Below, piece after piece: positions 4,697 to 50,249 of a DNA stretch of 56,479 nucleotides. Under the pieces are notes generated by a model that ran no database searches, had not been told where the DNA came from, and worked only from the letters and a program-made list of their open reading frames with translations. The stretch is from Chloroflexota bacterium (GTDB taxonomy: Bacteria > Chloroflexota > Limnocylindria > P2-11E), in assembly GCA_005887995.1 (NCBI GenBank), contig VBJD01000034.1, positions 1-56,479 on the forward strand, read 5' to 3'. Positions within the stretch are counted from its first letter, which is position 1, and each line of letters begins with the position of its first letter. Position numbers and translations under genes: made by a program.

Positions 4697-4710
4697 GCGG
4701 GGCTGTCTTG

Positions 4711-4785
4711 TCGGGGTGGTGGGACTCGAACCCACGGCCTTCTGACCCCCAGTCAGATGATCACTCCAAGCTGATCTACACCCCG
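4711..4785 (-). tRNA. tRNA-Pro (anticodon GGG)
   Basis: The minus strand folds as CGGGGTG-TA-GATC..GATC-A-TCTGA-CTGGGGG-TCAGA-AGGCC-GTGGG-TTCGAGT-CCCAC-CACCCCG-A. This is a 75-nt cloverleaf with G37 and no encoded CCA. Confidence 0.9.
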
Positions 4786-5483: not shown

Positions 5484-5747
5484 GTGGCAAGGTCTCAGCC
5501 GCGCGCCGACGAGCACGCCCCAGATCAAGAGGAGTTCCTCACGACGGACGAGGTCGCGCGGCGGCTCCGCGTCCATCCCACGACCATCCTGCGCCGCCTT
5601 GGCGCGGTGGACGACCCAGACCCCACGCGCATCCCAGCGGTGCGGGTCGGTCGCGTCTGGCGCATCCCACGGAAAGAGTTCGAGGAATGGCTCGCGCGAT
5701 CGAGCCAGGTTTCGCGCCTGGCCGGCCGTCAGCGACGCCTCTTCTGA
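5484..5747 (+). CDS. Excisionase-family (MerR-like) helix-turn-helix DNA-binding protein
   Basis: The sequence FLTTDEVARRLRVHPTTILRRLG...VRVGRVWRIPRKEFEEWL matches the excisionase-type HTH pattern. I chose GTG 5484 because AGGAG sits 5 nt upstream and it avoids overlap with the UDG gene. The track ORF starts at 5373. Confidence 0.6.
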   Translation: MARSQPRADEHAPDQEEFLTTDEVARRLRVHPTTILRRLGAVDDPDPTRIPAVRVGRVWRIPRKEFEEWLARSSQVSRLAGRQRRLF

Positions 5748-5789
5748 AGTGGCGCACCAGACACTCTCGTGGGAAGGGAGGTGATTTGA

Positions 5790-5831
5790 ATGCCGGCAAA
5801 GAAGAAGGGCGGAAAGAAGAAGAAGAAGTAA
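5790..5831 (+). CDS. 13-codon polylysine micro-ORF MPAKKKGGKKKKK (speculative; a leader peptide or tiny basic protein)
   Basis: GGGAGG/GGAGG at 5776-5781 sits 8 nt upstream of ATG 5790. The ORF has nine AAG codons and ends with TAA at 5829-5831. The purine run is unusual in this GC-rich context. Confidence 0.3.
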   Translation: MPAKKKGGKKKKK

Positions 5832-5852
5832 TTCTTCTGACCTTGTGGTGAC

Positions 5853-7719: not shown

Positions 7720-7932
7720 CTAGCGCGGCGAGTCGGTGAACTTCACCTCGAAGATCTCTTTGCATTTCGGACATCTGACCGTCGCCGCGTAGGGCGGGTT
7801 CGGCGGAACGTCGAGATGCTCGCGCGTCACGAAGCGCGGCCCGACCGCGGTGTTGCAGTACGGGCACTTCACTTCGTACTCGAGGAAGGCGCGGCGATCG
7901 ACCTCGATGCGCCTGCGCTGATCGACGCTCAT
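7720..7932 (-). CDS. Small zinc-ribbon protein (two CxxC pairs)
   Basis: The 70-aa ORF carries CPYC...CPKC. It fits compactly between neighbours and has normal-looking composition. Confidence 0.55.
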
Positions 7933-7970: not shown

Positions 7971-8477
7971 GTGGCCGCCCCCAAGGGACGCAACAAGATC
8001 GCGACCGAGACGAAGACGCTCAAGGTCGGCGATGTCGCTCCCGACTTCACCCTGCGCGCGCACGACGGCAGCGAGGTCACGCTGTCGGCGTACCGCGGCC
8101 GGCGCGTCGTCCTCGCGTTCTTCGCGTTCGCGTTCACCAACACCTGAAACAGCGAGGCGCCCGCGCTGAACTCGCTGCAGGAGCGGTTCGCGGGCGGCGG
8201 TGCCCAGGTCGTGGGCATCTCGTGCGACACGGTCTACACGCTGAAGAAGTGGGCCGAGGACCTCGGCGGCGTGAAGTACCCGCTCGCATCGGACTTCTGG
8301 CCGCACGGCGCGGTGAGCATGAAGTACGGCGTCTTCAACGAGGAGATCGGCCGTCCCGAGCGCTCGATCATCGTCGTCGACGCGGCGGGCATCGTGCGCT
8401 ACATCGACGTGCACCAGCTGCGCGAGGTGCCGGATGACGAGGAGATCGCGGACGAGCTGAAGAAGCTGGAAGGCTGA
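7971..8477 (+). CDS. AhpE-like 1-Cys peroxiredoxin with in-frame TGA (8145-8147) at the peroxidatic Cys position: candidate selenoprotein, otherwise a nonsense pseudogene
   Basis: GTG 7971 and the track ORF at 8211 are in the same frame. The upstream half reads [42 protein letters not shown]-[TGA]-NSE. The downstream half reads GISCD...[22 protein letters not shown]...ERSIIVVD. Both align with the AhpE/Prx fold as I recall it. Confidence 0.7.
8150..8177 (+). promoter_or_regulatory. SECIS-like stem-loop starting 3 nt after the in-frame TGA
   Basis: The lower stem is CAGCGAG (8150-8156) paired with CTCGCTG (8171-8177). The upper stem is GCG (8157-8159) paired with CGC (8164-8166). The apical loop is CCCG and there is a 3' bulge TGAA. 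Confidence 0.4.
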
Positions 8478-8501: not shown

Positions 8502-8954
8502 TCAGCCGCGCGTCGGAATGAGGTAGGCCTTTCCCTCGCCGTCGATCGTGAACTCCACGGCATCGCCGACGCGCATGGCTCCGAGCGTGTCGCCACGGAC
8601 CAGGACGTCGGCCCCGCAGTCGATCACCGCGATCTCGCCGGTCTCCTTCACGGTGCCTGAGACCGTCGCGTTCGGCGCGACGATGCCGCGGCTCGCGCTC
8701 GCCTCGCCGGTGCCGGCGTGCACGTCCTTCGCCCGGTACTCGATCGCCATGAAGATCCGATCGCCGATCGCGAGGCGGCCCTTGCGCACCGCGCCCGTCG
8801 CGTCCTGACCGCGCATATCGAGCCGCTCGCCGAGATCGCCGACGCGCAGCGTCACGATGATGTCCCCGCGTGTGCCGTCGAGCGCGACCACGACGCCGCG
8901 CGACGCCTTCTGGCGCCACTTCTCGATGAACGCGAGCTGCTCGAAGTCCAGCAT
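8502..8954 (-). CDS. Hypothetical protein (beta-rich, no recognised family)
   Basis: I trimmed the track ORF 8502-9011 to the internal ATG at 8954 (MLDFEQLAF...), so that it does not overlap the divergent HAD gene. Confidence 0.45.
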   Translation of the reverse strand: MLDFEQLAFIEKWRQKASRGVVVALDGTRGDIIVTLRVGDLGERLDMRGQDATGAVRKGRLAIGDRIFMAIEYRAKDVHAGTGEASASRGIVAPNATVSGTVKETGEIAVIDCGADVLVRGDTLGAMRVGDAVEFTIDGEGKAYLIPTRG

Positions 8955-8973
8955 CGCTCCGTACGATAGCCAC

Positions 8974-9744
8974 GTGAGTCTTCGGGCCGCGTTCTTCGAC
9001 GTCGGCGACACACTCGTCGATCACTGGGCGCCGCCGGAGCAGCTACACGAGCTCCTGCGCGAAGCCTTGCGACGCGAGTACGGGGAGCGCGCCTGGTACG
9101 AGCGGTGGATCACCGGGAAAGTCGAACCCGCTCGCACGGCCGAGGGCGACCTCGCGGCGATCGCGGCTGGTGAGGAGGAGATCTTCCGACAGGAGACCCT
9201 CCGCTGGTACGAGGACTGGTTCCGCAACGCGGCCGTCGGCATCGACGACGTCGAGATGGATCGACTGCGCTCGGTGATGTCCGTTCCGCTCGACCTCGTG
9301 TCGACGCCGGTCCCAGGTGCGTTCGCGGCGCTCCGCTGGTGCAAGGCGAAGGGCCTCAAGGTCGTGCTCGTCACCAACACGCTCTCGCGCGGCGACGACG
9401 AGGCGTGGGAGGACTGGCGGCGCTTCGGGCTCGCGGATGCGATCGACGGCATCGTGAGCTCGCACAGCCTTGGCTGGCAGAAGCCGCACCGGCGCATCTT
9501 CGAGCGCGCACTGGAGATCGCGGGCGCAAAGCCGGAGGAGGCGGTGATGGTCGGCGACCGCATGCTCGCCGACATCTGGGGCGCCAAGCGTCTTGGCATG
9601 CGCGCGGTGCTGCGCCGCACGCCTCACGAGCAGGCCGCTGCCGATGTCACGCCGGACGCGGTCATCGACGACCTCACCGAACTGCCCGGCGTGATTGCTC
9701 CCTGGCTCGCGCGGCCGGCCGCGGACGCCTCACGAACGCGCTAG
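8974..9744 (+). CDS. HAD-superfamily hydrolase (subfamily IA-like)
   Basis: Motifs present are FFDVGDTLV (motif I-like), VLVTNT (motif II), and K...MVGD (motifs III/IV). The start is set at GTG 8974, just before motif I. Confidence 0.75.
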   Translation: MSLRAAFFDVGDTLVDHWAPPEQLHELLREALRREYGERAWYERWITGKVEPARTAEGDLAAIAAGEEEIFRQETLRWYEDWFRNAAVGIDDVEMDRLRSVMSVPLDLVSTPVPGAFAALRWCKAKGLKVVLVTNTLSRGDDEAWEDWRRFGLADAIDGIVSSHSLGWQKPHRRIFERALEIAGAKPEEAVMVGDRMLADIWGAKRLGMRAVLRRTPHEQAAADVTPDAVIDDLTELPGVIAPWLARPAADASRTR

Positions 9745-29298: not shown

Positions 29299-30642
29299 TT
29301 GGCGGAGGTCACGCAGGCCGCGCAGCATGGGCTGCTCCGCAACCGCGGGTTCATGGCGCTGTGGGCCGCGCAGATCCTCTCGCAGACCGCGGCCAACGCG
29401 GTCACCTCCGCGCTGATCGTCCTCGTCGCGGAGCTCACGCACAACAACACCTCGTCCTCGTTCCTCATCCTCCTCGCGATCATCCCCGCGGTGCTCTTCG
29501 GGTTCGCTGGTGGCGTCATCGTCGACCGCGTCGATCGGCGGATCGTGCTCATCGTCACGAACTCCGCGCGCGCGGTCGCGATCATCCCGCTGCTCCTCGC
29601 GGGCGACAGCGTGACGACTGCCTACCTGGTGAACTTCCTCGTCGCCGCGGTCACGCTCTTCTTCGTCCCCGCGGAAGCTGCGACGATCCCATCGATCGTG
29701 CGCCGCAGCGATCTCCTCGTCGCGAACTCGCTGTTCACCTTCACGTTCAACGGCGCGTTCCTCGTCGGCTTCATCATCCTCGCGCCGGTCATGGTGAGCC
29801 TGTACGGCTTCACCGCACTGTGGTTCACGATCGTCATCATGTTCGAGATCGCGTCGGTCCTCTGCCTCACGCTGCCATCGGTGCCACCGACCGCGAAGCT
29901 TGGCGCCGACGTCGCCGAACGTGCCGTCACCGAGACGCGGCGTGGCATCGCCGACGCGTTCCACTACCTGCGCTCGACGCCGCTCGTCACCTGGGCGATG
30001 GTCTACATCGCGCTCACGTACACGCTCGTGGCGATCGCCGGCGCGCTCGCGCCAGGCTTCGTGCGCGAGGTGCTCCGCCTGGGCGAGCGCAACGTCGTCG
30101 TGCTCGTCGGGCCAGCCGGCATCGGGGTCGTGGTCGGACTCGGCGTGCTGAACGTCGTCTCCCGGCGCATCGGACGATCCCATGCGATCGGTCTCGGGCT
30201 CCTCGTCATATCGATCGCGCTCGCGGCGCTCGCGGCAGCCCGGCCGTTCGCCGACGTCTTCGCGAACTCGCAGTTTGGGCAGTTCGGCGGGCTCGCCGCG
30301 CTCGGCGGGGCGCTGCCGTTCTTCATCGGCATCGTGAGCGTGACCGCGTTCGTGTTCGGAATGGCCTACTCGTTCATCACCGTTCCGGCGATGACGCTGC
30401 TCCAAGAGGAGCTGCCGGAGGACATCCGCGGCCGCGTCTTCGGAGTGTTGAACTCGCTCGTCTCGATCTTCAGCTTTCTGCCGCTCATCATCGTCGGCCC
30501 GATCGCCGACGTGTGGGGGATCGCGCCGGTGTTCGTCCTCGCCGCCGCCGCCGTCTTCGGCGTGTGGCTCGCTGGACGGTCCGCGCGCCTCAAATCTGTG
30601 ACGAACGTCACACCAGGAGCGAGTCACGCTCAGTTAAACTGA
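29299..30642 (+). CDS. MFS transporter (MFS_3/EntS-like)
   Basis: It has LLRNRGFMALWAAQILSQ at the N-terminus and about 12 TM helices. I chose TTG 29299 because the conserved N-terminal motif lies upstream of the first ATG. Confidence 0.75.
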   Translation: MAEVTQAAQHGLLRNRGFMALWAAQILSQTAANAVTSALIVLVAELTHNNTSSSFLILLAIIPAVLFGFAGGVIVDRVDRRIVLIVTNSARAVAIIPLLLAGDSVTTAYLVNFLVAAVTLFFVPAEAATIPSIVRRSDLLVANSLFTFTFNGAFLVGFIILAPVMVSLYGFTALWFTIVIMFEIASVLCLTLPSVPPTAKLGADVAERAVTETRRGIADAFHYLRSTPLVTWAMVYIALTYTLVAIAGALAPGFVREVLRLGERNVVVLVGPAGIGVVVGLGVLNVVSRRIGRSHAIGLGLLVISIALAALAAARPFADVFANSQFGQFGGLAALGGALPFFIGIVSVTAFVFGMAYSFITVPAMTLLQEELPEDIRGRVFGVLNSLVSIFSFLPLIIVGPIADVWGIAPVFVLAAAAVFGVWLAGRSARLKSVTNVTPGASHAQLN

Positions 30643-42207: not shown

Positions 42208-42795
42208 ATGGCGATCGAAGAGCGTCCCGCCGAGTCAAAGGGCGTCCCGATCGACTTCGAACAGGACGTCATTCAGCGCCGTCCGGTGAGCTCGCAGGCA
42301 GGCCTCGCCGGCGAGGACATCCCCATTCGCAGATCGGTCATCGCCGAAGACGACAACGTCGTCTTCACGACCGTGACGAATCTCATCAACTGGGCGCGGT
42401 CGCGTTCGCCCTGGCCGCTCGGCTACGGCCTCGCGTGCTGCGCGATCGAGATGTTCGCGAGCGTCGCGCCGCAGCATGACCTCTCGCGTTTCGGGGCGGA
42501 GGTGTTCCGTTCGAGCCCGCGCCAGGCGGACGTGATGATCGTGGCCGGGACCGTGACCCACAAGATGGCGCCCCGCCTCCGCCGGCTCTACGAACAGATG
42601 CCCGAGCCGAAGTGGGTCATCGCCATGGGCAACTGCGCATCGAGCGGCGGTGAGTTCTGGGACAGCTACTCGACCCTGCAGGGCGTCGACACGGTCGTGC
42701 CGGTCGATGTCTATGTTCCGGGCTGCCCGCCGCGTCCCGAAGCGCTGACCGAAGGCGTCCTCCGGCTGCGCGAAAAGATCTCCAGGGGCGGCTAG
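42208..42795 (+). CDS. nuoB: NADH-quinone oxidoreductase subunit B
   Basis: It carries [18 protein letters not shown] and VPGCPPRPE, the ligand pattern for cluster N2. Confidence 0.9.
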
Positions 42796-42796
42796 T

Positions 42797-42892
42797 GCGA
42801 ACGAGGAGCGCGGGGGCAGGGGCCCCCGTTCAGCGCGCGACAGCACGCGTGACCGCGACGAGGGAGCAGCCTTGAGCGTGTCTCCCGTGCGC
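42797..42892 (+). repeat. Intercistronic repeat copy A (hairpin CGGGGGC-AGGG-GCCCCCG at 42811-42828, then GTTCAGCG..., SD, nuoD start)
   Basis: It aligns by eye with 44060-44158 over ~90 nt with few mismatches and one small indel. Confidence 0.8.
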
Positions 42893-44059
42893 AGCACAGA
42901 GATCGGGAGAGAGGGCGCGCTCGTCGACCTTCCGATCATCGAAACAGAGGAAGGGCTCCAGACCGAAGAGCTCATCCTCAACATGGGGCCGCAGCATCCG
43001 TCGACGCACGGCGTCCTGCGTCTGGTGCTGAAGATGTCCGGCGAGAAGGTCATCGAGTGCATCCCGGTGATGGGGTATCTCCATCGAGGCCTCGAGAAGA
43101 TCTTCGAGTGGCGCACGTACCACCAGGGCATCCGCTACGCGGACCAAGCCGACTACGTCTCGAACATGCTCAACGAACACGCATACGCCGGGGCGATGGA
43201 GGCGATCGGCGGCATCGACGTGCCGCGCCGCGCCGAGTACATCCGCGTGATCGTGGACGAGATGAGCCGGTGCGCCGCGCACCTCATCTGGCTCGGCACG
43301 TACGGCCTCGACGTCGGTGCGACGACACCGTTCCTCTGGTGCCTACGCGACCGCGAAGAGATCCTCGACATGTTCGAGGAAGTCTGTGGCTCGCGCATGA
43401 ACTTCAACTATTACCGCCCGGGGGGCGTGCTCTACGACCTGCCGCAGGGCTGGCTCGGGAAGCTCGAGCGGTTCCTGGATCGCTTCGCGGACCGCATCGA
43501 GGCTGACTACATGCGCATCCTCGAAGGAAACGAGATCTTCCTCGAGCGGACCATCGGCGTCGGCACGATCCCCGCTCACGTCGCGAAGCAGTACGGCATC
43601 ACCGGCCCGATGCTCCGCGCGTCGGGCGTCGACTGGGACCTCCGGCGTGACCGTCCGTACGGGATCTACCCCGAGCTGAAGACGCTGAGGCCAGTCGTGT
43701 TCCCCGACGGCGACGCGTTCGCACGCTTCAAGGTGCGCGTCGGCGAGATGCGGCTTGCGATCGCGCTCATCCGCGAGTGCATCGCGAACTTGCCGGGAGG
43801 CGCGGTGCGCGCTCGGCTCGGCCACGTGTGGAAGTGCCCGAAGGGCGAGGCGTACTACACCGTCGAGGGCGCGAAGGGCGAGGTCGGGATCTACATGATC
43901 AGCGACGGACGCAGTCCGAACCCCTTCCGCGCGAAAATGCGCGGGCCATCCTTCAACAACCTGCAGATCGTCCCGTGGCTGCTCAAGGGACGCCTCGTCG
44001 CGGACGTCGTCGCGATCCTCGGATCGCTCGACTTCGTGTTGGGTGAGGTAGACAGATGA
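42872..44059 (+). CDS. nuoD: NADH-quinone oxidoreductase subunit D (short form; no NiFe-ligand cysteines)
   Basis: It reads NMGPQHPSTHGVLRL, GYLHRGLEK and ...SLDFVLGEVDR. The TTG start has GAGGGAG 5 nt upstream. Confidence 0.9.
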   Translation: MSVSPVRSTEIGREGALVDLPIIETEEGLQTEELILNMGPQHPSTHGVLRLVLKMSGEKVIECIPVMGYLHRGLEKIFEWRTYHQGIRYADQADYVSNMLNEHAYAGAMEAIGGIDVPRRAEYIRVIVDEMSRCAAHLIWLGTYGLDVGATTPFLWCLRDREEILDMFEEVCGSRMNFNYYRPGGVLYDLPQGWLGKLERFLDRFADRIEADYMRILEGNEIFLERTIGVGTIPAHVAKQYGITGPMLRASGVDWDLRRDRPYGIYPELKTLRPVVFPDGDAFARFKVRVGEMRLAIALIRECIANLPGGAVRARLGHVWKCPKGEAYYTVEGAKGEVGIYMISDGRSPNPFRAKMRGPSFNNLQIVPWLLKGRLVADVVAILGSLDFVLGEVDR

Positions 44060-44158
44060 GCGAGCGACGAGCGCAGGGGCAGGGGCCCCTGTTCAGCGAG
44101 CGGCAGCGAGCGTGGCCGCGAGGAGTGAGAACCACCAGCCCTGAGCGTGTCTCGCGTC
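44060..44158 (+). repeat. Intercistronic repeat copy B (hairpin CAGGGGC-AGGG-GCCCCTG at 44074-44091; ends with a ghost copy of the nuoD start region)
   Basis: See copy A. Positions 44136-44157 (cagccCTGagcgtgtctcgcgt) mirror 42867-42888 (cagccTTGagcgtgtctcccgt). Confidence 0.8.
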
Positions 44159-44210
44159 CAGGGGTAGGGGCCCCTGTTCAGCGAGCGACGCGAGCGCGGC
44201 GCGAGATTGA
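44159..44210 (+). repeat. Intercistronic repeat copy C (hairpin CAGGGGT-AGGG-GCCCCTG at 44159-44176), directly upstream of the NuoI/E-like cistron
   Basis: It has the same hairpin plus the GTTCAGCGAGCG core. A G-U wobble sits at the closing pair. Confidence 0.75.
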
Positions 44211-44238
44211 GGTGGATCGCTAACGTGGTGATCCGATA

Positions 44239-44958
44239 GTGCTCGGCATCGTCGACGGCATGGTGCGGACGCTGCAGCACCTCTTCCGCGCGCGTCTCGT
44301 GACGCGGAAGTACCCGTACGAGAAGCGCGAGTTGCCTGAGCGATCGCGCGGCCTCATCGCCCTGCTCCTCGAACCCGAGACGAGCATCTTCAAGTGCGAG
44401 TCGTGCCTCATGTGCGAGAAGGCGTGTCCGCCGCGCGCGATCTCGATCTCGTACAAGTTCCGCAACGGCTTCCGCCGCCGGCCGATGCTCGCGCCGCGCG
44501 CCTCCTATTACCGCATTCGCATGGTGCAGACCGCCCCGTACGGCGATCGGCGGCCGATGTCGACGGCGGTCGTCACCGTCCCCGCGGAGGCGGAGCGCGG
44601 CCTCGATACGAAGAAGGTCGACGAGATCCTGCGCGGTGAGCCCGCGGGGCTCGATCGCATGACGCGCGTTCTCTATCGCACGCACGATGCGTACGGCTAC
44701 CTTCCGTGGACCGCCGCGGAGCGCATCGCCGCCGAATTCGGCAAGACGATGACCGACGTCTACACCGCGGCGTCACTTCTCGCGAACTTCCGCGGTGCCC
44801 CTGAGGGACAGGGGACCGCGGTGCCGCGCGGTGGGCGGAAGTTCACCGGCAACCTCGGCATCGCCGGCGAGTGGCCGGCCGCGTCGCCGGCGCCTGCGCA
44901 CGACACGCTGCGCGAAGACGAGGTGAAGCACGTGCTCGAGCCGACGTATGCCCGCTAA
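44239..44958 (+). CDS. NuoI-like (single 4Fe-4S motif) fused to a NuoE-like N-terminal helical segment that lacks the 2Fe-2S domain
   Basis: The N-terminus GMVRTLQHLFRARLVTRKYPYEKRELPERSRG...CESCLMCEKACP is NuoI-like but has only one CxxCxxCxxxCP. The C-terminal half VDEILRG...RVLYRTHDAYGYLPWTAAERIAAEFGKTMTDVYTAASLLANF is NuoE-like and contains no cysteine. Confidence 0.6.
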   Translation: MLGIVDGMVRTLQHLFRARLVTRKYPYEKRELPERSRGLIALLLEPETSIFKCESCLMCEKACPPRAISISYKFRNGFRRRPMLAPRASYYRIRMVQTAPYGDRRPMSTAVVTVPAEAERGLDTKKVDEILRGEPAGLDRMTRVLYRTHDAYGYLPWTAAERIAAEFGKTMTDVYTAASLLANFRGAPEGQGTAVPRGGRKFTGNLGIAGEWPAASPAPAHDTLREDEVKHVLEPTYAR

Positions 44959-46153
44959 CGCCACGCTGCTGAACGGCGCGCCGCCGACCGGCGGCGATGT
45001 CCGCGCGCGGCCGCCGGACGAGATCGTCGCGATGATCGAGAAGAGCGATCTCCGCGGGCGCGGCGGCGCGGGCTACCCGCTCGCGAAGAAGATCGCGGCC
45101 GTCCGCGATGCGGCAAAGGCGACCGGACGTGCCCCGCTCGTCATCGCGAACGCGTACGACGCCGACCCCGACAGTCCACTCTCGCGAACGCTCATCAAGC
45201 ACTCGCCGCTCGGTGTCCTCCGCGGGACGATGATCGCGGCGGTCGCGGTCGGCGCGCGCGAAGCGATCGTGTACCTGCATCCGAAGGCCGAGGACGAGCG
45301 CCGTGCGCTCGAGAGCGAGCTCGCGAAGCTCGAGGGCTCGCTCGGCGGCGTGCTCATCTCCGTCGCGCTCGGCCCAGGTGGCTTCATGGGCGGCGAAGAG
45401 AGCGCGCTCATGAACGTGCTCGAGTCGAAGCGCGCGATGGCGCGCCAGCGCCCGCCGTATCCGGCCAGCCTCGGCGTGGAGCAGCGTCCGACACTGATTT
45501 CGAGCGCCGAGACGCTCGCGTGGCTACCGCACATCCTCGAGCGCGGCGTGCGCGCCGACTCGAAGCTCGTGTCCGTCACGGGCGCGGTTCGTTCGCCGGG
45601 CGTGTACGAGGTCGCGCTCGGCGCGACGCTCGCCGAGATCCTCGACGCAGCGGGTGGTGTCATCGGCGAGCTCAAGGGCATCCACGTTGGCGGGCCGACC
45701 GGAGGGATCCTATCGGCGACGCGTCGGGGGACGCGCCTCGACTTCGACGAGCTGCGCGCGGCGGGGACGCACATGGGCTCGGGGCAGATCCGCGCGATCG
45801 CGGAGGGCACCTGCATCGTCGCCGAGGCGGCGAAGCTTTTCGCGTACCTCGCGAAGGAGACCTGCGGCATCTGCGTGCCGTGCCGCGTCGGCACGGCGCG
45901 AGTGCAGGGGATCCTCGAGAGCGTGCAGAGCCAGCTCGGGCGCGACGAAGATACGAAGTGGCTCGGCGAGCTCGGCGATCACATGGAGCAGTTCTCGCTC
46001 TGCGGCTTCGGCATCACCGCGCCGTCGATCCTCCGCACCACGATGTATGAGTTCGCCGAGGACTACCGCGCGCACATCGAAGATCACCGCTGCCCGACCG
46101 GCTCGTGCAAGCCCGTCCGCGCGCGGCGCTACGAGACGATGGTCCAGCCATGA
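44948..46153 (+). CDS. nuoF: NADH-quinone oxidoreductase subunit F-like flavoprotein (FMN/NADH site, N3-type 4Fe-4S)
   Basis: It carries LRGRGGAGYPLAKK, GGEESALMNVLES, ETCGICVPCRVG and SLCGFG. Confidence 0.85.
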   Translation: MPANATLLNGAPPTGGDVRARPPDEIVAMIEKSDLRGRGGAGYPLAKKIAAVRDAAKATGRAPLVIANAYDADPDSPLSRTLIKHSPLGVLRGTMIAAVAVGAREAIVYLHPKAEDERRALESELAKLEGSLGGVLISVALGPGGFMGGEESALMNVLESKRAMARQRPPYPASLGVEQRPTLISSAETLAWLPHILERGVRADSKLVSVTGAVRSPGVYEVALGATLAEILDAAGGVIGELKGIHVGGPTGGILSATRRGTRLDFDELRAAGTHMGSGQIRAIAEGTCIVAEAAKLFAYLAKETCGICVPCRVGTARVQGILESVQSQLGRDEDTKWLGELGDHMEQFSLCGFGITAPSILRTTMYEFAEDYRAHIEDHRCPTGSCKPVRARRYETMVQP

Positions 46154-48564
46154 GTCTGCTCGAGCGTTATACGCAGCCCGCGGAAGCGCAGATCCCGACG
46201 GTGTCGCACCAGGGCGACATCCCGGCGGGCCAGCCCACGTGCACGATCTGGATCGACGGCCAGGAGGTCACGGCCGTCGCGGGCGAGGCGATCCTTCGCG
46301 CGGCGCAGCGCGCCGGCTTCAACATCCCGACGCTCTGCGACGACGAGAAGCTCGCACCCGCCGCCGCGTGCCGTATGTGTCTGGTGAACATCGATGGCTA
46401 CGACCGGCCGATGCCGTCGTGCCACCTCGCGGTCGAGCCGGGCATGAAGATCACCGCGACCGAGGACGGCCTCTTCAAGATGCGCCGGCAGAACCTCGAG
46501 TACATCCTCAGCGACCACAACGCGTACTGCATGCCGCCGTGCCAGATCGGCTGCCCGACGCACATCGACATCCCGGGCTACCTCGAGCTCATGGCCAAGG
46601 GGCAGCACGTCGAGGCCGCGCGCCTGGTGAAGGAAGTGCTGCCGTTCCCATACGCACTCGGGCTGGTGTGTCCGCGCCCGTGCCAGGAGGTGTGCCGCCG
46701 CGGTCTCGTCGAGGAGGAGATCGCGATCTGCCAGTGCCACGGGTACACGGGCGAGATGGTCATGGAGATGGAGAAGGCGCCGACGCCATTTCCGCAGCTG
46801 CCCGCGACCGGCAAGCGCGTCGCGGTCATCGGCGCGGGTCCCGCGGGGCTCACTTGCGCGTACTACGTCGCCCTGGCGGGCCACGCGGTGACGGTGTTCG
46901 ACATGATGGAGAAGCAGGGCGGGATGCTCCGCTACGGCATCCCCGAGTACCGCCTGCCAAAGGTGAAGCTCGACAAGGAGCTCAACTCCGTCTGGCAGCT
47001 CCGCGACGCGGAGTTCAAGGGGAACATGAAGCTCGGGCGCGACTTCTCCATCGATGACCTGGTCGCGCAGGGCTACGACTCCGTCTTCATCGGCATCGGC
47101 GCGTGGTCGAGCAACGACCTGCCCATCCCGGGCATCGACCTGCCGGGGGTCATCGAGGCGATCAACTACCTGAACCAGAACGCGAGCGGCGATCCGGTGC
47201 CGGTCGGCAAGGGCTCGCGTGTCGTCGTCATGGGCGGCGGGTTCACGACCTTCGACTGCGCGCGCACCTCGCGCCGCCTCGGCGCCGAGGTCACCGTTGT
47301 CTACCGCCGCTCGCGCAAGGAGATGGGCGCGCATTACAGCGAGGTCGACGACGCCGAGCACGAGGGCATCAAGCTCGAGTTCTTCGGTTCGCCCGTGAAG
47401 ATCCACGAGAAGGACGGACGCGTCGGCGGCGTCGAGTTCCAGCGCATGGCGCTCGGCGAGCCGGATGCCTCGGGTCGCCGCCGGCCCGTGCCGATCGAGG
47501 GGGCGAACTTCACCATCGACTGCGACGTCGTCATCCCGGCGATCGGGCAGCTGCCGGTGCTCGACTGGTTCGAGCGCTCGCCGGGCATCCGCAAGACGCG
47601 GCGCGAGACGATCGTCGCGAACGCCGCGCTCATGACCGATCGGCCGGGCGTGTTCTCAGGCGGCGACTGCCAGATGGGGACGGTCACCGTCATCCAGGCG
47701 GTCGCGCAGGGAAAGCTCGCGGCGAAGGCGATCGATCGCTACCTCGCGGGTGACGACATGTCCCTCGTCGCCTCGGAGATCCAAGAGGAGGAGCGCGTCC
47801 CCGAGCTCATCGACATCGTTCCCTATAAGCCCGAGGAGCCGCAGGTGCGTATGCCGTTCCTGCCGTTCGAGCAGCGCGTGCGCTCCTTCGAGCTCATCGA
47901 GGGCGGCTACGACAAGGCCGGCGCCGAGAAGGAAGCCGCGCGCTGCCTGCAGTGCGTCTGCCCGGACGTCGGCCGCTGCCACCTGCAGCGGCTGTCACTG
48001 GAGCACGGCCTCACCGACAACCGCTTCCACCGCGCCGAGCCGGTGGACTACCACGACTATGAGTACGACTTCAGCCATGACTTCATCCTTCGCGACCTCA
48101 ACAAGTGCATCAACTGCACGCAGTGCGTGCGCATCTGCCGCGACGTCATCGGCGCGAACTGCTACGGCCTCATGGGTGGTGGATACGACTCGATCGTCAC
48201 GACGCCGTGGAACGTGTCGCTCTCGTACACCGACTGCGTCTCGTGCGGCGCGTGCGCGGAGACGTGCCCGACGGGCGCGCTCATGATGCGCGAGCGCGAC
48301 CTGGAGACGTACGAGCTCGACATCGTGCGGTGCATCTACTGCGGCGACTGCGTCGAGGTGTGCCCGCACGGCGCGCTCGGCGAGACGCCGAACTTCGAGC
48401 TCTCGACCTACACGCGGTTCGGTAGGACCGTCCTCGCGAAGGAGGAGCTCGCCGTCGCGCGCACGTGGAAGCCGAGTGAGGACATCCCCACGAACGGCGA
48501 TGGCAAGGGCGGCGTGCGTCCGCCCGAGGTCCGTCCGCCCGCGCCGCCGCGCTGGAGCGCGTAG
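46150..48564 (+). CDS. Fusion protein: NuoG-type N-terminal 2Fe-2S domain + GltD-type (glutamate synthase small-subunit-like) FAD/NAD(P)H module + NuoG/ferredoxin-type 4Fe-4S domains
   Basis: The 2Fe-2S part is TLCDDEKLAPAAACRMCLV...SC. The GltD part is CMPPCQIGCP, VCPRPCQEVC and GKRVAVIGAGPAGL...GGMLRYGIPEYRLPK. The 4Fe-4S motifs are CINCTQCVRIC, CVSCGACAETCPTGAL and CIYCGDCVEVCPHGAL. Its ATGA start overlaps the nuoF stop. Confidence 0.8.
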   Translation: MSLLERYTQPAEAQIPTVSHQGDIPAGQPTCTIWIDGQEVTAVAGEAILRAAQRAGFNIPTLCDDEKLAPAAACRMCLVNIDGYDRPMPSCHLAVEPGMKITATEDGLFKMRRQNLEYILSDHNAYCMPPCQIGCPTHIDIPGYLELMAKGQHVEAARLVKEVLPFPYALGLVCPRPCQEVCRRGLVEEEIAICQCHGYTGEMVMEMEKAPTPFPQLPATGKRVAVIGAGPAGLTCAYYVALAGHAVTVFDMMEKQGGMLRYGIPEYRLPKVKLDKELNSVWQLRDAEFKGNMKLGRDFSIDDLVAQGYDSVFIGIGAWSSNDLPIPGIDLPGVIEAINYLNQNASGDPVPVGKGSRVVVMGGGFTTFDCARTSRRLGAEVTVVYRRSRKEMGAHYSEVDDAEHEGIKLEFFGSPVKIHEKDGRVGGVEFQRMALGEPDASGRRRPVPIEGANFTIDCDVVIPAIGQLPVLDWFERSPGIRKTRRETIVANAALMTDRPGVFSGGDCQMGTVTVIQAVAQGKLAAKAIDRYLAGDDMSLVASEIQEEERVPELIDIVPYKPEEPQVRMPFLPFEQRVRSFELIEGGYDKAGAEKEAARCLQCVCPDVGRCHLQRLSLEHGLTDNRFHRAEPVDYHDYEYDFSHDFILRDLNKCINCTQCVRICRDVIGANCYGLMGGGYDSIVTTPWNVSLSYTDCVSCGACAETCPTGALMMRERDLETYELDIVRCIYCGDCVEVCPHGALGETPNFELSTYTRFGRTVLAKEELAVARTWKPSEDIPTNGDGKGGVRPPEVRPPAPPRWSA

Positions 48565-48635: not shown

Positions 48636-49676
48636 ATGGACGCCGCGCTCTACGACCCCGACCACGGCTATTACTCGACGCGCGCTTCGATCGGCTTCGA
48701 GGGCGACTACCTCACAGCACCAGATCTCGGTCCGCACCTCGGTCGCGCGCTCTCACGAGCGATGGCGGACTTCTGGCAGCAGCTCGGAAAGCCGCACTCG
48801 TGGGATCTCGTCGAGGCTGGCGCGGGGAGGGGGACGCTGCTGCGGGATGTTCTCGCGTCGCTTGAGCGTGAGCGACCCGATGCCGCGCGGGGCGTGCGGC
48901 CGGCGATCGTCGAGGTGTCGCAGCACCTTCGCGCCCAGCAGTCCTCGGCACTCGACGGCCGCGACATCCGTTGGGCGTCCGACCCGCGCGCGCTCGGGCC
49001 GATCGCGGGCGTGCTCTACGCGAACGAGATCCTCGATGCGTTCCCGGTGCACGTCCTCGTGCGGACGACAGACGGCGCGCGTGAGGTCTTCGTCAGCGTG
49101 CACGAAGATCGTCTCGTCGAGACGCTGCGCCCGCCGAACCCGCCGGAACTTCGCTACCGCGTGCCCGAAGCGGTGCCGATGGGCGGACGGTGGGAGGTGA
49201 GCCCGCGAGCCGAAGGCTGGGTCGCTGGGCTCGCAGCCGCGATGACGCGAGGGTACGTGCTCTTCATCGATTACGGCGGAGACGAGCCGGAGCTGCTGAC
49301 GCGCTTCGGCAGTGGGACCGTCCGTGGCTTTGCGCGCCATCGACTCATCGCCGACCCGTTCACCGAGCCCGGGGAGCACGACCTGACGGCGAGCGTGAAC
49401 TTCACCGCGGTCCGACGCGCCGCGGAGGGCGCGGGCTTCACGTTCGCAGGCCGGACGTCGCAGCGCGAGGCGTTGCTTGCGCTCGGCATCCGCGACGTCG
49501 CCTCGCGCCCGACGACGCCGATCGACCGGCTGCGCGATCTCGGCCGCCGTTCGGCGATCGACACATTGCTCGATCCAACCGGCTTCGGCGCGTTCCAGGT
49601 CGTCTGCTTCGCGAAGGACGCGCCCGAGGAAGGGCTACGCCTGTTCGCAACCCGTCAGGGCAGCGTGCAGAGGTAG
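48636..49676 (+). CDS. MidA/NDUFAF7-family (DUF185) SAM-dependent methyltransferase; the true start is probably upstream of the first ATG
   Basis: It carries YMDAALYDPDHGYY, DLVEAGAGRGTL and ANEILDAFPVH. Family-typical N-terminal residues (LAERLLARIRARGAISFADY) are encoded in frame at 48576-48635, with no ATG/GTG/TTG upstream. Confidence 0.75.
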   Translation: MDAALYDPDHGYYSTRASIGFEGDYLTAPDLGPHLGRALSRAMADFWQQLGKPHSWDLVEAGAGRGTLLRDVLASLERERPDAARGVRPAIVEVSQHLRAQQSSALDGRDIRWASDPRALGPIAGVLYANEILDAFPVHVLVRTTDGAREVFVSVHEDRLVETLRPPNPPELRYRVPEAVPMGGRWEVSPRAEGWVAGLAAAMTRGYVLFIDYGGDEPELLTRFGSGTVRGFARHRLIADPFTEPGEHDLTASVNFTAVRRAAEGAGFTFAGRTSQREALLALGIRDVASRPTTPIDRLRDLGRRSAIDTLLDPTGFGAFQVVCFAKDAPEEGLRLFATRQGSVQR

Positions 49677-49927
49677 CCACTGGGACGGACGATGAACGTC
49701 CCGCCGTACGCGTGCTCGCAGACGGGTTGACCGACGACGAACGCGTGATAGGGAAGGCTCCCGCCCTCGCAGTGATAGAAGTTCTCGTCCGCGTGCGGGA
49801 TGAAGTTCCCGCCCGAGTGCTCGCAGACCTCCTGCGCCGGCCGGAACGTCGGCGGCGCGGCGAGCGCCGATGTCGTCGACGAAAGCAACAATGCCGCCAC
49901 TGCGAGACCAGGAAGTGCCCGTCGCAT
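49655..49927 (-). CDS. Small secreted Cys-containing protein with an internal duplication
   Basis: It has the signal MRRALPGLAVAALLLSSTTSALA. The duplicated motif is VCEHSGGNF...YHCEG and VCEHAYGGTF...YLC. Confidence 0.45.
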   Translation of the reverse strand: MRRALPGLAVAALLLSSTTSALAAPPTFRPAQEVCEHSGGNFIPHADENFYHCEGGSLPYHAFVVGQPVCEHAYGGTFIVRPSGYLCTLP

Positions 49928-49976
49928 GCCCACCGTGTCCTCCACCTCCGCGTAGCGCGGATGGCGGGAGTATGGC

Positions 49977-50249
49977 TTACGCCTCGTTCAACTCGGTGTC
50001 ATAGACGTGCTCCGACGGATCGCTGTGGACGAGCTCGAGATGGTTGCCTTCGGCCTCGTGGATGAGCTGCCAGCCCTCGCGCTCGAGCTCGACCAGCCAC
50101 ACCGCGAAACCGTGGAGCTCATGCGCTGCCTCGGATAGTGATCTGCTGCCATCGGCGATCGGCCCGACGCAGATCGGTTCGACGCGCTCCTCGAACTCAT
50201 GCTCGTCGAATTCCGCGGCGAGATCGGCTGCTTGATCGGGCGTCAGCAT
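49977..50249 (-). CDS. Small acidic hypothetical protein
   Basis: I trimmed the track ORF 49977-50273 to the internal ATG (MLTPDQAADL...). I recognise no family. Confidence 0.35.
   Translation of the reverse strand: MLTPDQAADLAAEFDEHEFEERVEPICVGPIADGSRSLSEAAHELHGFAVWLVELEREGWQLIHEAEGNHLELVHSDPSEHVYDTELNEA

Follow-up and report, generated by a model that had tools for sequence, protein, structure and literature searches.

A very probable selenocysteine-containing AhpE-type peroxiredoxin in Limnocylindria and the RNA hairpins that possibly direct its decoding

Does a TGA codon that falls exactly on the catalytic cysteine of a peroxiredoxin (Prx) gene mark a broken gene or a selenoprotein? The question is raised by positions 7971-8477 of contig VBJD01000034.1 (assembly GCA_005887995.1), from a Chloroflexota bacterium of the Limnocylindria. 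The whole contig of 56,479 nucleotides (nt) was analyzed and is referred to as the window. A sequence-only reading had proposed here a selenocysteine (Sec) form of the peroxiredoxin AhpE, together with a hairpin directly after the TGA that resembled a selenocysteine insertion sequence (SECIS). Comparison with homologous loci makes it very probable that the stretch encodes one 168-residue AhpE-type peroxiredoxin with Sec as the peroxidatic residue. The hairpin first proposed is not a conserved element, and two other hairpins, termed H1 and H2, are the candidates for directing Sec insertion.

Reading frame and protein family

The frame that opens at GTG 7971, where orthologs have ATG, runs for 169 codons to the TGA at 8475-8477, and the TGA at 8145-8147 is its sole interruption, as the sequence-only reading had described. 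That reading had found only the C-terminal half (8211-8477, 88 amino acids (aa)) in its track of open reading frames (ORFs). The mechanical ORF list indeed contains this half and also holds the N-terminal part as a 58-aa ORF at 7971-8147. Orthologs align in one segment spanning residues 1-167. All 120 of the 120 best protein-database matches to the C-terminal part are truncated gene calls of 87-113 aa, which indicates that annotation pipelines everywhere truncate the gene at this point.

With Cys substituted at the UGA position, the protein matches Pfam PF00578 (AhpC-TSA) over profile positions 1-124 of 124 with 123.5 bits (cutoff 26, E 6e-36). The seven best PDB sequences are all Mycobacterium tuberculosis AhpE (Rv2238c), at 109-113 bits and E ~1e-31, and the next family follows at 65 bits (7e-17). 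Identity to M. tuberculosis AhpE is 44 % over 151 residues. Judged by its nearest relatives, the predicted protein is closer to AhpE than to other Prx subfamilies. The top NCBIfam match is the PrxU equivalog profile NF040737, with 68.5 bits against a cutoff of 270, and the Prx-SUH thiol peroxidase profile NF045827 scores 43 bits against 298; both values are below membership.

Alignment of FFAFAFTNT[TGA]NSE with FFPLAFTGICQGE of AhpE places the stop exactly on the peroxidatic Cys of the PxxxTxxC motif, in agreement with the earlier placement. T56-N-T-U59 corresponds to T-G-I-C of AhpE and so conforms to TxxC/U. Downstream of the UGA the protein appears intact, as had also been claimed: the SDFWPHGAV motif is common to both proteins, and Arg131 (codon 8361-8363) aligns with the catalytic Arg of AhpE. 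The motif Pro is replaced by Ala52, a substitution already noticed in the sequence-only reading and present throughout the window's clade, with Ser in a few orthologs. It is retained in sister subfamilies that carry TGA, for example FYPLDWSPT*, FFPLAWTPI* and FHPLNFTPT* (the asterisk marks the TGA codon).

Conservation of the UGA and selection on the gene

Homologs were collected by a genome scan, with one genome per GTDB species, and by a metagenome scan that added further loci. At all 28 of 28 loci from Candidatus Limnocylindria/Chloroflexota metagenome-assembled genomes (MAGs; 67-91 % aa identity), TGA occupies this codon and there is no other stop. About 50 further metagenome loci have TGA at the peroxidatic codon, including subfamilies only 37-49 % identical. 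The TGA is invariant across ~80 unique homologous loci, referred to as Sec forms, which comprise at least six active-site motif subfamilies; the contexts of TGA-bearing subfamilies include FYPLDWSPT*TNE, FFPLAWTPI*TSQ, FYALDWTPT*SAQ, FHPLNFTPT*ARQ, FYVLAFTPV*GEQ and FHPATFTGG*KNH. The relatives on which the earlier reading had hung its case, with TGC/TGT or TGA as the deciding codon, thus carry TGA.

The same alignment column contains TGC or TGT at loci L029-L032, L085, L090, L094, L103, L105, L106 and L109, which constitutes a Sec/Cys pair, and siblings of TGA subfamilies carry Cys (L085, L090, L094) or Ser (L100, L110). The closest Cys forms in the genome scan are Actinomycetota proteins with ~46 % identity. 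Pairing of Sec and Cys at a redox-active catalytic residue is a hallmark of selenoproteins (PMC13188914, PMC1794560), and Prx proteins with TxxU (PF00578) are an accepted, experimentally supported selenoprotein family (PMC13188914), found in 78 organisms in a 2016 survey (PMC5029168) and traced to five independent Cys-to-Sec conversions in a 2006 survey (PMC1794560). That the UGA specifies Sec rather than another residue we infer from comparative criteria.

Selection was estimated from 63 unique full-length sequences of the window's clade, in all of which the TGA is invariant. Over the 54 codons that precede the TGA, the ratio of nonsynonymous to synonymous substitution rates (dN/dS) is 0.19, and over the 106 codons that follow it the ratio is 0.21; dS values are 0.65-0.8. 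The codons that flank the UGA, ACC (-1) and AAC (+1), show almost no synonymous variation. These values bear on two explanations that need no recoding. That the gene is a pseudogene with a nonsense mutation, or that the TGA reflects an error of sequencing or assembly, is an account that a single window would leave room for, and a related contig (L082) does have a frameshifted copy; yet the same TGA recurs in independent assemblies from many studies and samples, other lesions are absent, dN/dS is ~0.2 on both sides and synteny is conserved, so that this account has a negligible probability. The preference of the sequence-only reading for a Sec-AhpE over a nonsense pseudogene is upheld by the TGA of the relatives, the lack of further lesions and the constraint on both halves.

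The second explanation is that translation stops at the UGA and that the locus is a split gene (58 aa plus ~88-109 aa), or yields a C-terminal fragment only, in either case without a peroxidatic residue. Across ~80 loci, however, the halves adjoin each other in one frame without exception, and the stop falls exactly on the catalytic codon. The stretch of 21 codons from the TGA to GTG 8211 shows conservation at the protein level, and both halves experience the same purifying selection. We know of no function for a Prx fold that is cut within helix alpha2 and lacks its catalytic residue. Although gene callers predict such products in 120/120 best database entries, and GTG 8211 and other starts lie downstream of the TGA, termination at the UGA is considered highly improbable.

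In a rough neighbor-joining tree without support values, all Sec forms fall within one clade and the outgroups are all Cys forms. Nested inside the Sec clade are the Cys forms L085 and L090, which are 69-70 % identical to their Sec sisters, and L094, together with the Ser forms L100 and L110. The pattern fits one old Cys-to-Sec switch, which would have been followed by reversions with decay of the hairpins described below.

Several individual loci are worth recording. L100 (2927-3001) and L110 (2913-2987) have Ser (AGC) at the peroxidatic position in the context FYPLNWE[QP]VS; if expressed, they would be Prx-fold proteins without a redox-active catalytic residue. The frameshifted copy at L082:313-673 (WNGO01302634.1) derives from a window-clade gene and represents a real pseudogene or an assembly error. 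Two distinct TGA-form copies, L020 and L023, occur on separate contigs of MAG DASWDY01, with 75 % and 73 % identity to the window protein, and may be either paralogs or mixed strains in the bin. L021 (DASPWX010000213.1), from a MAG labelled Candidatus Bathyarchaeia archaeon, has the same peroxiredoxin at 80 % identity, flanked by UDG, CAP, zinc-ribbon, HAD and PCMT genes; as both the peroxiredoxin and its flanks match Limnocylindria loci, this contig is probably misbinned.

Meaning of UGA in the organism

UGA is not reassigned in this organism. TGA ends ~20 of the 46 window ORFs with high GC content at third codon positions (GC3), the peroxiredoxin gene among them, and the PCMT gene has a TGA stop five residues past the end of its Pfam domain. 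On both strands of the 56-kb window, the TGA at 8145 is the only one with a strong coding signal on both sides. The same scan of related loci returned the peroxiredoxin TGA in 67 loci and otherwise six noise-like matches. A same-frame TGA junction at 30640 was rejected as a selenoprotein candidate, being the stop of an MFS transporter followed by the start of an ABC transporter.

No tRNA-Sec was found in the window with ARAGORN or Rfam, and SelA, SelB and SelD are absent among its thirty annotated ORFs. ARAGORN calls a 90-nt 'tRNA-Glu(ttc)' at 49826-49915 (-), which was considered as a mis-called tRNA-Sec and rejected: the anticodon is not UCA and there is no Rfam tRNA support. The call is probably a false positive and falls within a high-GC3 ORF (49655-49987, -). 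Sec users are known among the Chloroflexi (PMC1794560, Table 2; PMC5389517), and an atypical 8/4 tRNA-Sec has been reported in Chloroflexi and Actinobacteria (PMC5389517), a type that ARAGORN and Rfam might overlook. The literature available for searching contained no report of a Sec-form AhpE or of selenium use in Limnocylindria.

RNA structure downstream of the UGA

Candidate RNA elements were examined on gapless codon alignments of Sec forms. The hairpin of the sequence-only reading (7-bp stem 8150-8156/8171-8177, upper 3-bp GCG/CGC stem and CCCG loop) folds as drawn, at -12.2 kcal/mol, and to that extent the earlier description stands. As a conserved SECIS it does not. Local folding after the UGA is unexceptional for GC-rich sequence (z = -1.28 against dinucleotide shuffles). 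The hairpin as a whole pairs in 58 % of alignment cells, compared with 15-44 % in slid controls, and its 7-bp stem in 49.6 %, with pair 11-28 formed in 6 of 68 sequences. This stem is not conserved, and it depends on the TCG codon at 8171-8173, which is replaced in most orthologs; the conservation among TGA orthologs that the earlier reading had looked to is therefore missing. From ribosome footprints, a stem starting 3 nt past the UGA would be inside the ribosome when the UGA occupies the A site.

H1 (coordinates in Table 1) consists of an outer 7-bp GC stem, an inner 4+4-bp stem and a GCAGG loop, and starts at +12 to +16 in most Sec forms. In the window, the segment +10..+57 has z = -3.4 and ranks first in stability among the 55 48-nt stretches of its own gene; in most Sec forms it is the most or nearly the most stable such stretch. 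Its mean z is -2.5 in 79 Sec forms and -0.1 in 12 Cys/Ser forms; the mean for the Sec forms divides into ~-2.9 for the window's clade and ~-1.4 for the remaining Sec subfamilies. H1 pairs in 72 % of alignment cells, compared with 33-55 % when slid, while the stem sequences vary by subfamily: GCGCCCGCG/CGCGGGCGG, UCGGCG/CGCCGA, AUCCCA/UGGGAU, UUCCGGCG/CGCCGGA and GGCGGCG/CGCCGCC. H1 is a candidate structured spacer or a candidate SECIS stem in the canonical position.

H2 came out of a null result. Synonymous diversity was not suppressed directly after the UGA (0.321 at codons +1 to +17 compared with 0.335 in the rest of the gene, p = 0.36), and this finding in the diversity profile led to codons +19 to +24, where synonymous diversity is ~0 and which are the core of the least diverse part of the gene. 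H2 lies there, and its stem in the window can be extended to 8199-8219. Of 80 unique Sec forms, 79 have all five pairs and 69 have the exact 15-mer, for which the codon usage of the gene would predict ~4 %; none of 12 Cys/Ser forms has the five pairs. Stem variants in Sec forms keep the pairing and consist of a G-C to A-U double change (ACCCA…UGGGU), found in two unrelated subfamilies, and four G.U wobbles (GCUCA, GUCCA); loop changes also occur among Sec forms. The Cys form L094 encodes the same AQVVG peptide with GCGCAGGTGGTGGGC, which breaks the H2 stem. In a scan of 652 kb (the window and 112 related loci), a 5-bp stem with a GGU loop was rejected as a selenoprotein finder, having given 81 off-target matches.

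None of the nested non-Sec forms has an intact H2, and none has excess H1 stability. This loss suggests that both hairpins are tied to UGA decoding. A covariance model trained solely on distant Sec subfamilies had the window element as its unique match, with 52.3 bits and E ~4e-14.

Decoding of the UGA and the catalytic role of U59

In the model that we prefer, UGA 8145-8147 would be decoded by SelB.GTP.Sec-tRNASec, recruited by RNA structure within the next ~72 nt of the coding sequence (CDS). H2, with its GGUCG loop, would be the SelB-binding element, since it alone of the two hairpins carries a conserved G-G-U loop. While the UGA occupies the A site, H1 would be positioned at the mRNA entrance, remaining folded and looping out ~40 nt. 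Ribosome footprints put +12 to +16 approximately where the mRNA leaves the ribosome with the UGA in the A site. With H1 folded, the H2 core would be 11 unpaired nt from the UGA in the window (median 12 nt), which equals the spacing of the mini-SECIS of Escherichia coli fdhF. In E. coli, a distant SECIS reportedly worked when brought near the UGA. Such a bipartite SECIS, in which a GGUC-loop mini-hairpin ~55-60 nt past the UGA would be brought to the ribosome by a looping-out hairpin of variable sequence, is advanced tentatively, at somewhat below an even chance.

A number of observations weigh against Sec decoding by this arrangement. The H2 loop starts 59 nt past the UGA, outside the 16-37 nt spacing of the published model of the bacterial SECIS (bSECIS; PMC13188914), of which H2 otherwise has the loop, stem and energy. 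Covariation statistics for H2 are not above those of shuffles, because the element is too invariant, and the number of unpaired nucleotides between the UGA and H2 fails to separate Sec from Cys forms. No consensus structure across subfamilies emerged from RNAalifold with 68 Sec-form sequences, because stem registers shift by 1-2 nt between subfamilies, and Rfam has no SECIS or other family on 8100-8300. The covariance model described above also gives nested Cys forms 35-41 bits; the model is therefore not independent structural evidence, and shared coding ancestry accounts for part of the RNA signal. The H1 loop is not conserved, being mostly CCAGC or CAG without the required G in Sec forms, so that the bSECIS criteria are passed at H1 by 14 of 81 Sec forms, compared with 2 of 12 controls. 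One TGA-bearing homolog, L081:1016-1498 (FHPATFTGG*KNH), has neither H1 nor H2; it may have a different element directly after the UGA or be a pseudogene. Finally, tblastn with E. coli SelA, SelB and SelD probes and aragorn detected no selA, selB, selD or tRNA-Sec in the 652 kb. As these sequences are a small fraction of any genome, the lack of Sec genes there is uninformative and does not count against the hypothesis.

An alternative is that the protein is a selenoprotein whose SECIS is H1 alone, H2 being kept by protein or codon constraint on the AQVVG strand or for an unrelated RNA role. In the window, H1 has all four features of the bSECIS model (PMC13188914): a GCAGG loop, a spacing of 29 nt from the UGA, which is the canonical position, an upper stem of at least 4 bp and an energy of -23.7 kcal/mol. 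Its extra stability is specific to Sec forms, and H2 shows no significant covariation besides lying beyond the accepted spacing. The unconserved H1 loop, with the low pass rate just given, argues the other way, as do the frequency of the H2 15-mer, its disruption in AQVVG-encoding Cys forms such as L094 and the presence in H2 of the GGUC loop of the E. coli SelB-binding hairpin. We consider H1 rather unlikely to be the entire SECIS.

The UGA might also be read as an amino acid other than Sec: as Cys, through a selC*-type tRNACys or thiophosphate-charged machinery, or as Trp, Cys or Arg by near-cognate read-through, with a Cys-Prx or a variant as product. No selective reason is apparent for keeping UGA across dS ~0.7 when TGC or TGT gives Cys directly, and both the Sec/Cys pairing at a redox-active catalytic residue (PMC13188914, PMC1794560) and the resemblance of H2 to a SelB-binding loop speak against such decoding. 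Opal suppressors of the selC* tRNACys type do exist in some bacteria, but have been reported only in anaerobic Firmicutes, Thermodesulfobacteria, Nitrospirae and Proteobacteria (PMC5389517). That Sec-decoding genes were not found in the 652 kb is compatible with a non-Sec residue, and a stable hairpin just past the edge of the ribosome could stimulate read-through. On balance, non-Sec decoding is judged improbable.

By analogy with the family, the U59 selenolate, positioned by T56 and R131, would attack the hydroperoxide and be converted to a selenenic acid, which would then be reduced by a thiol partner or by the conserved Cys85. Cys85 and a neighboring 70-aa CPYC protein are candidate reductants only.

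Comparison with known systems

The window protein resembles M. tuberculosis AhpE (PDB 1XVW, 1XXU, 4X0X) in length, fold family, the F-T-x-x-[C/U]-x-x-E context and the catalytic Arg. It differs in having UGA in place of the catalytic Cys codon, Ala52 in place of Pro, a conserved 13-residue N-terminal extension and an additional conserved Cys85 (ISCD), and its host belongs to the Chloroflexota (Limnocylindria) and not to the Actinobacteria. PrxU, first described in Eubacterium acidaminophilum (NF040737), is likewise a PF00578 protein with Sec at the peroxidatic TxxU. In contrast to PrxU, the window protein falls in a different, AhpE-like Prx subfamily, its hosts are high-GC soil and freshwater Chloroflexota and other soil bacteria rather than anaerobic Firmicutes, and its conserved RNA element lies much further from the UGA. 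Prx-SUH (NF045827) and the Prx-like thiol:disulfide oxidoreductases (UxxC) are also thioredoxin-fold selenoproteins of the peroxidase type with the same Sec/Cys-pair logic (PMC13188914); their Sec motif is CxxU or UxxC, whereas that of the window protein is TxxU. Although Sec-peroxiredoxins as such are already known, the putative AhpE-like Sec-Prx subfamily is covered by no curated model.

In the E. coli fdhF SECIS, the upper hairpin begins at +15, 11 nt past the UGA, and its loop is GGUC in GCA-GGUC-UGC. H2 shares with it a short GC-rich stem, a loop that starts with GGUC and the same CA-GGUC context (CCA-GGUC-G-UGG). In contrast to fdhF, where the loop starts 18 nt past the UGA, H2 has a 39-nt hairpin, H1, between itself and the UGA and has no bulged U; as a SelB site, H2 is a candidate.

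The gene is found throughout the Limnocylindria, a Chloroflexota class represented here mainly by soil MAGs, and also in several further soil lineages. As a selenoprotein gene it would mark a selenium dependence of peroxide defense in these organisms, and it shows where gene-calling programs and selenoprotein searches based on SECIS break down. If the bipartite SECIS is real, it is a natural counterpart of engineered looped-out SECIS designs and goes beyond the current bacterial model, and a widespread class of selenoproteins in soil is systematically overlooked by SECIS searches confined to 16-37 nt. Confirmation of the H1/H2 arrangement would widen the accepted geometry of the bacterial SECIS and provide a natural template for setting the SelB-binding hairpin at a large distance from the UGA, a real constraint in the design of recombinant selenoproteins.

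Gene neighborhood and other features of the window

Table 1. Positions of the peroxiredoxin gene, its candidate RNA elements and further features in the window.
Feature	Positions	Strand	Remarks
AhpE-like peroxiredoxin CDS, 168 predicted residues, residue 59 = UGA	7971..8477	+	One frame, Pfam match, PDB relatives, orthologs
In-frame UGA, proposed Sec codon U59 in motif T56-N-T-U59	8145..8147	+	Aligns to AhpE peroxidatic Cys
Hairpin proposed earlier	8150..8177	+	Overlaps H1; folds, stem not conserved; not considered functional
H1 hairpin, +14 to +52 after the U of UGA	8158..8196	+	-23.7 kcal/mol, stability specific to Sec forms
H2 mini-hairpin GCCCA-GGUCG-UGGGC, +58 to +72	8202..8216	+	-7.5 kcal/mol, synonymous sites frozen; candidate SelB-binding element
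70-aa four-Cys protein (CPYC...CPKC)	7720..7932	-	Divergent neighbor, 38 nt from peroxiredoxin gene
169-aa protein	8502-9011	-	Convergent to peroxiredoxin, 24 nt past its stop
13-codon Lys-rich mini-ORF (MPAKKKGGKKKKK*)	5791-5832	+	Strong Shine-Dalgarno-like GGGAGGTGA at 5776-5784
Short ORF, excisionase/MerR-like helix-turn-helix (…TTDEVARRLRVHPTTILRRL…)	5520-5747	+	Judged by eye only
NuoB-, NuoD- and NuoF-like genes, then 837-aa fusion (2Fe-2S, 4Fe-4S, FAD/NAD-binding)	42208-48564	+	Gene cluster

The peroxiredoxin gene is part of a conserved eight-gene block that comprises genes for UDG, a CAP-domain protein, the divergent 70-aa four-Cys protein, the peroxiredoxin, the convergent 169-aa protein, HAD, PCMT and an amidohydrolase. 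The 70-aa protein holds its place and orientation relative to the peroxiredoxin gene in 72 loci. It has no Pfam match and gives weak zinc-ribbon matches (TIGR02098, E 1e-5). CPYC is the classical glutaredoxin motif, and the protein is a possible redox partner or regulator of the peroxiredoxin. For the 169-aa protein, which is conserved in 64 related loci, neither Pfam nor NCBIfam gives a match.

Versions of the Lys-rich mini-ORF, 12-20 aa long (MPAKKKKAAKKGKKK, MPKKKKAAKKKH and similar), occur in syntenic position at ~48 related loci, always with GGAGGTGA upstream. The mini-ORF has no Rfam match; it could encode a tiny basic, possibly ribosome-associated protein or a leader peptide. The helix-turn-helix ORF is close to a tRNA-Pro gene (4710-4785), and an excisionase-like ORF beside a tRNA gene is typical of integrated elements. 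The cluster of Nuo-like genes has the appearance of a soluble NADH-linked oxidoreductase module and not of a complete complex I.

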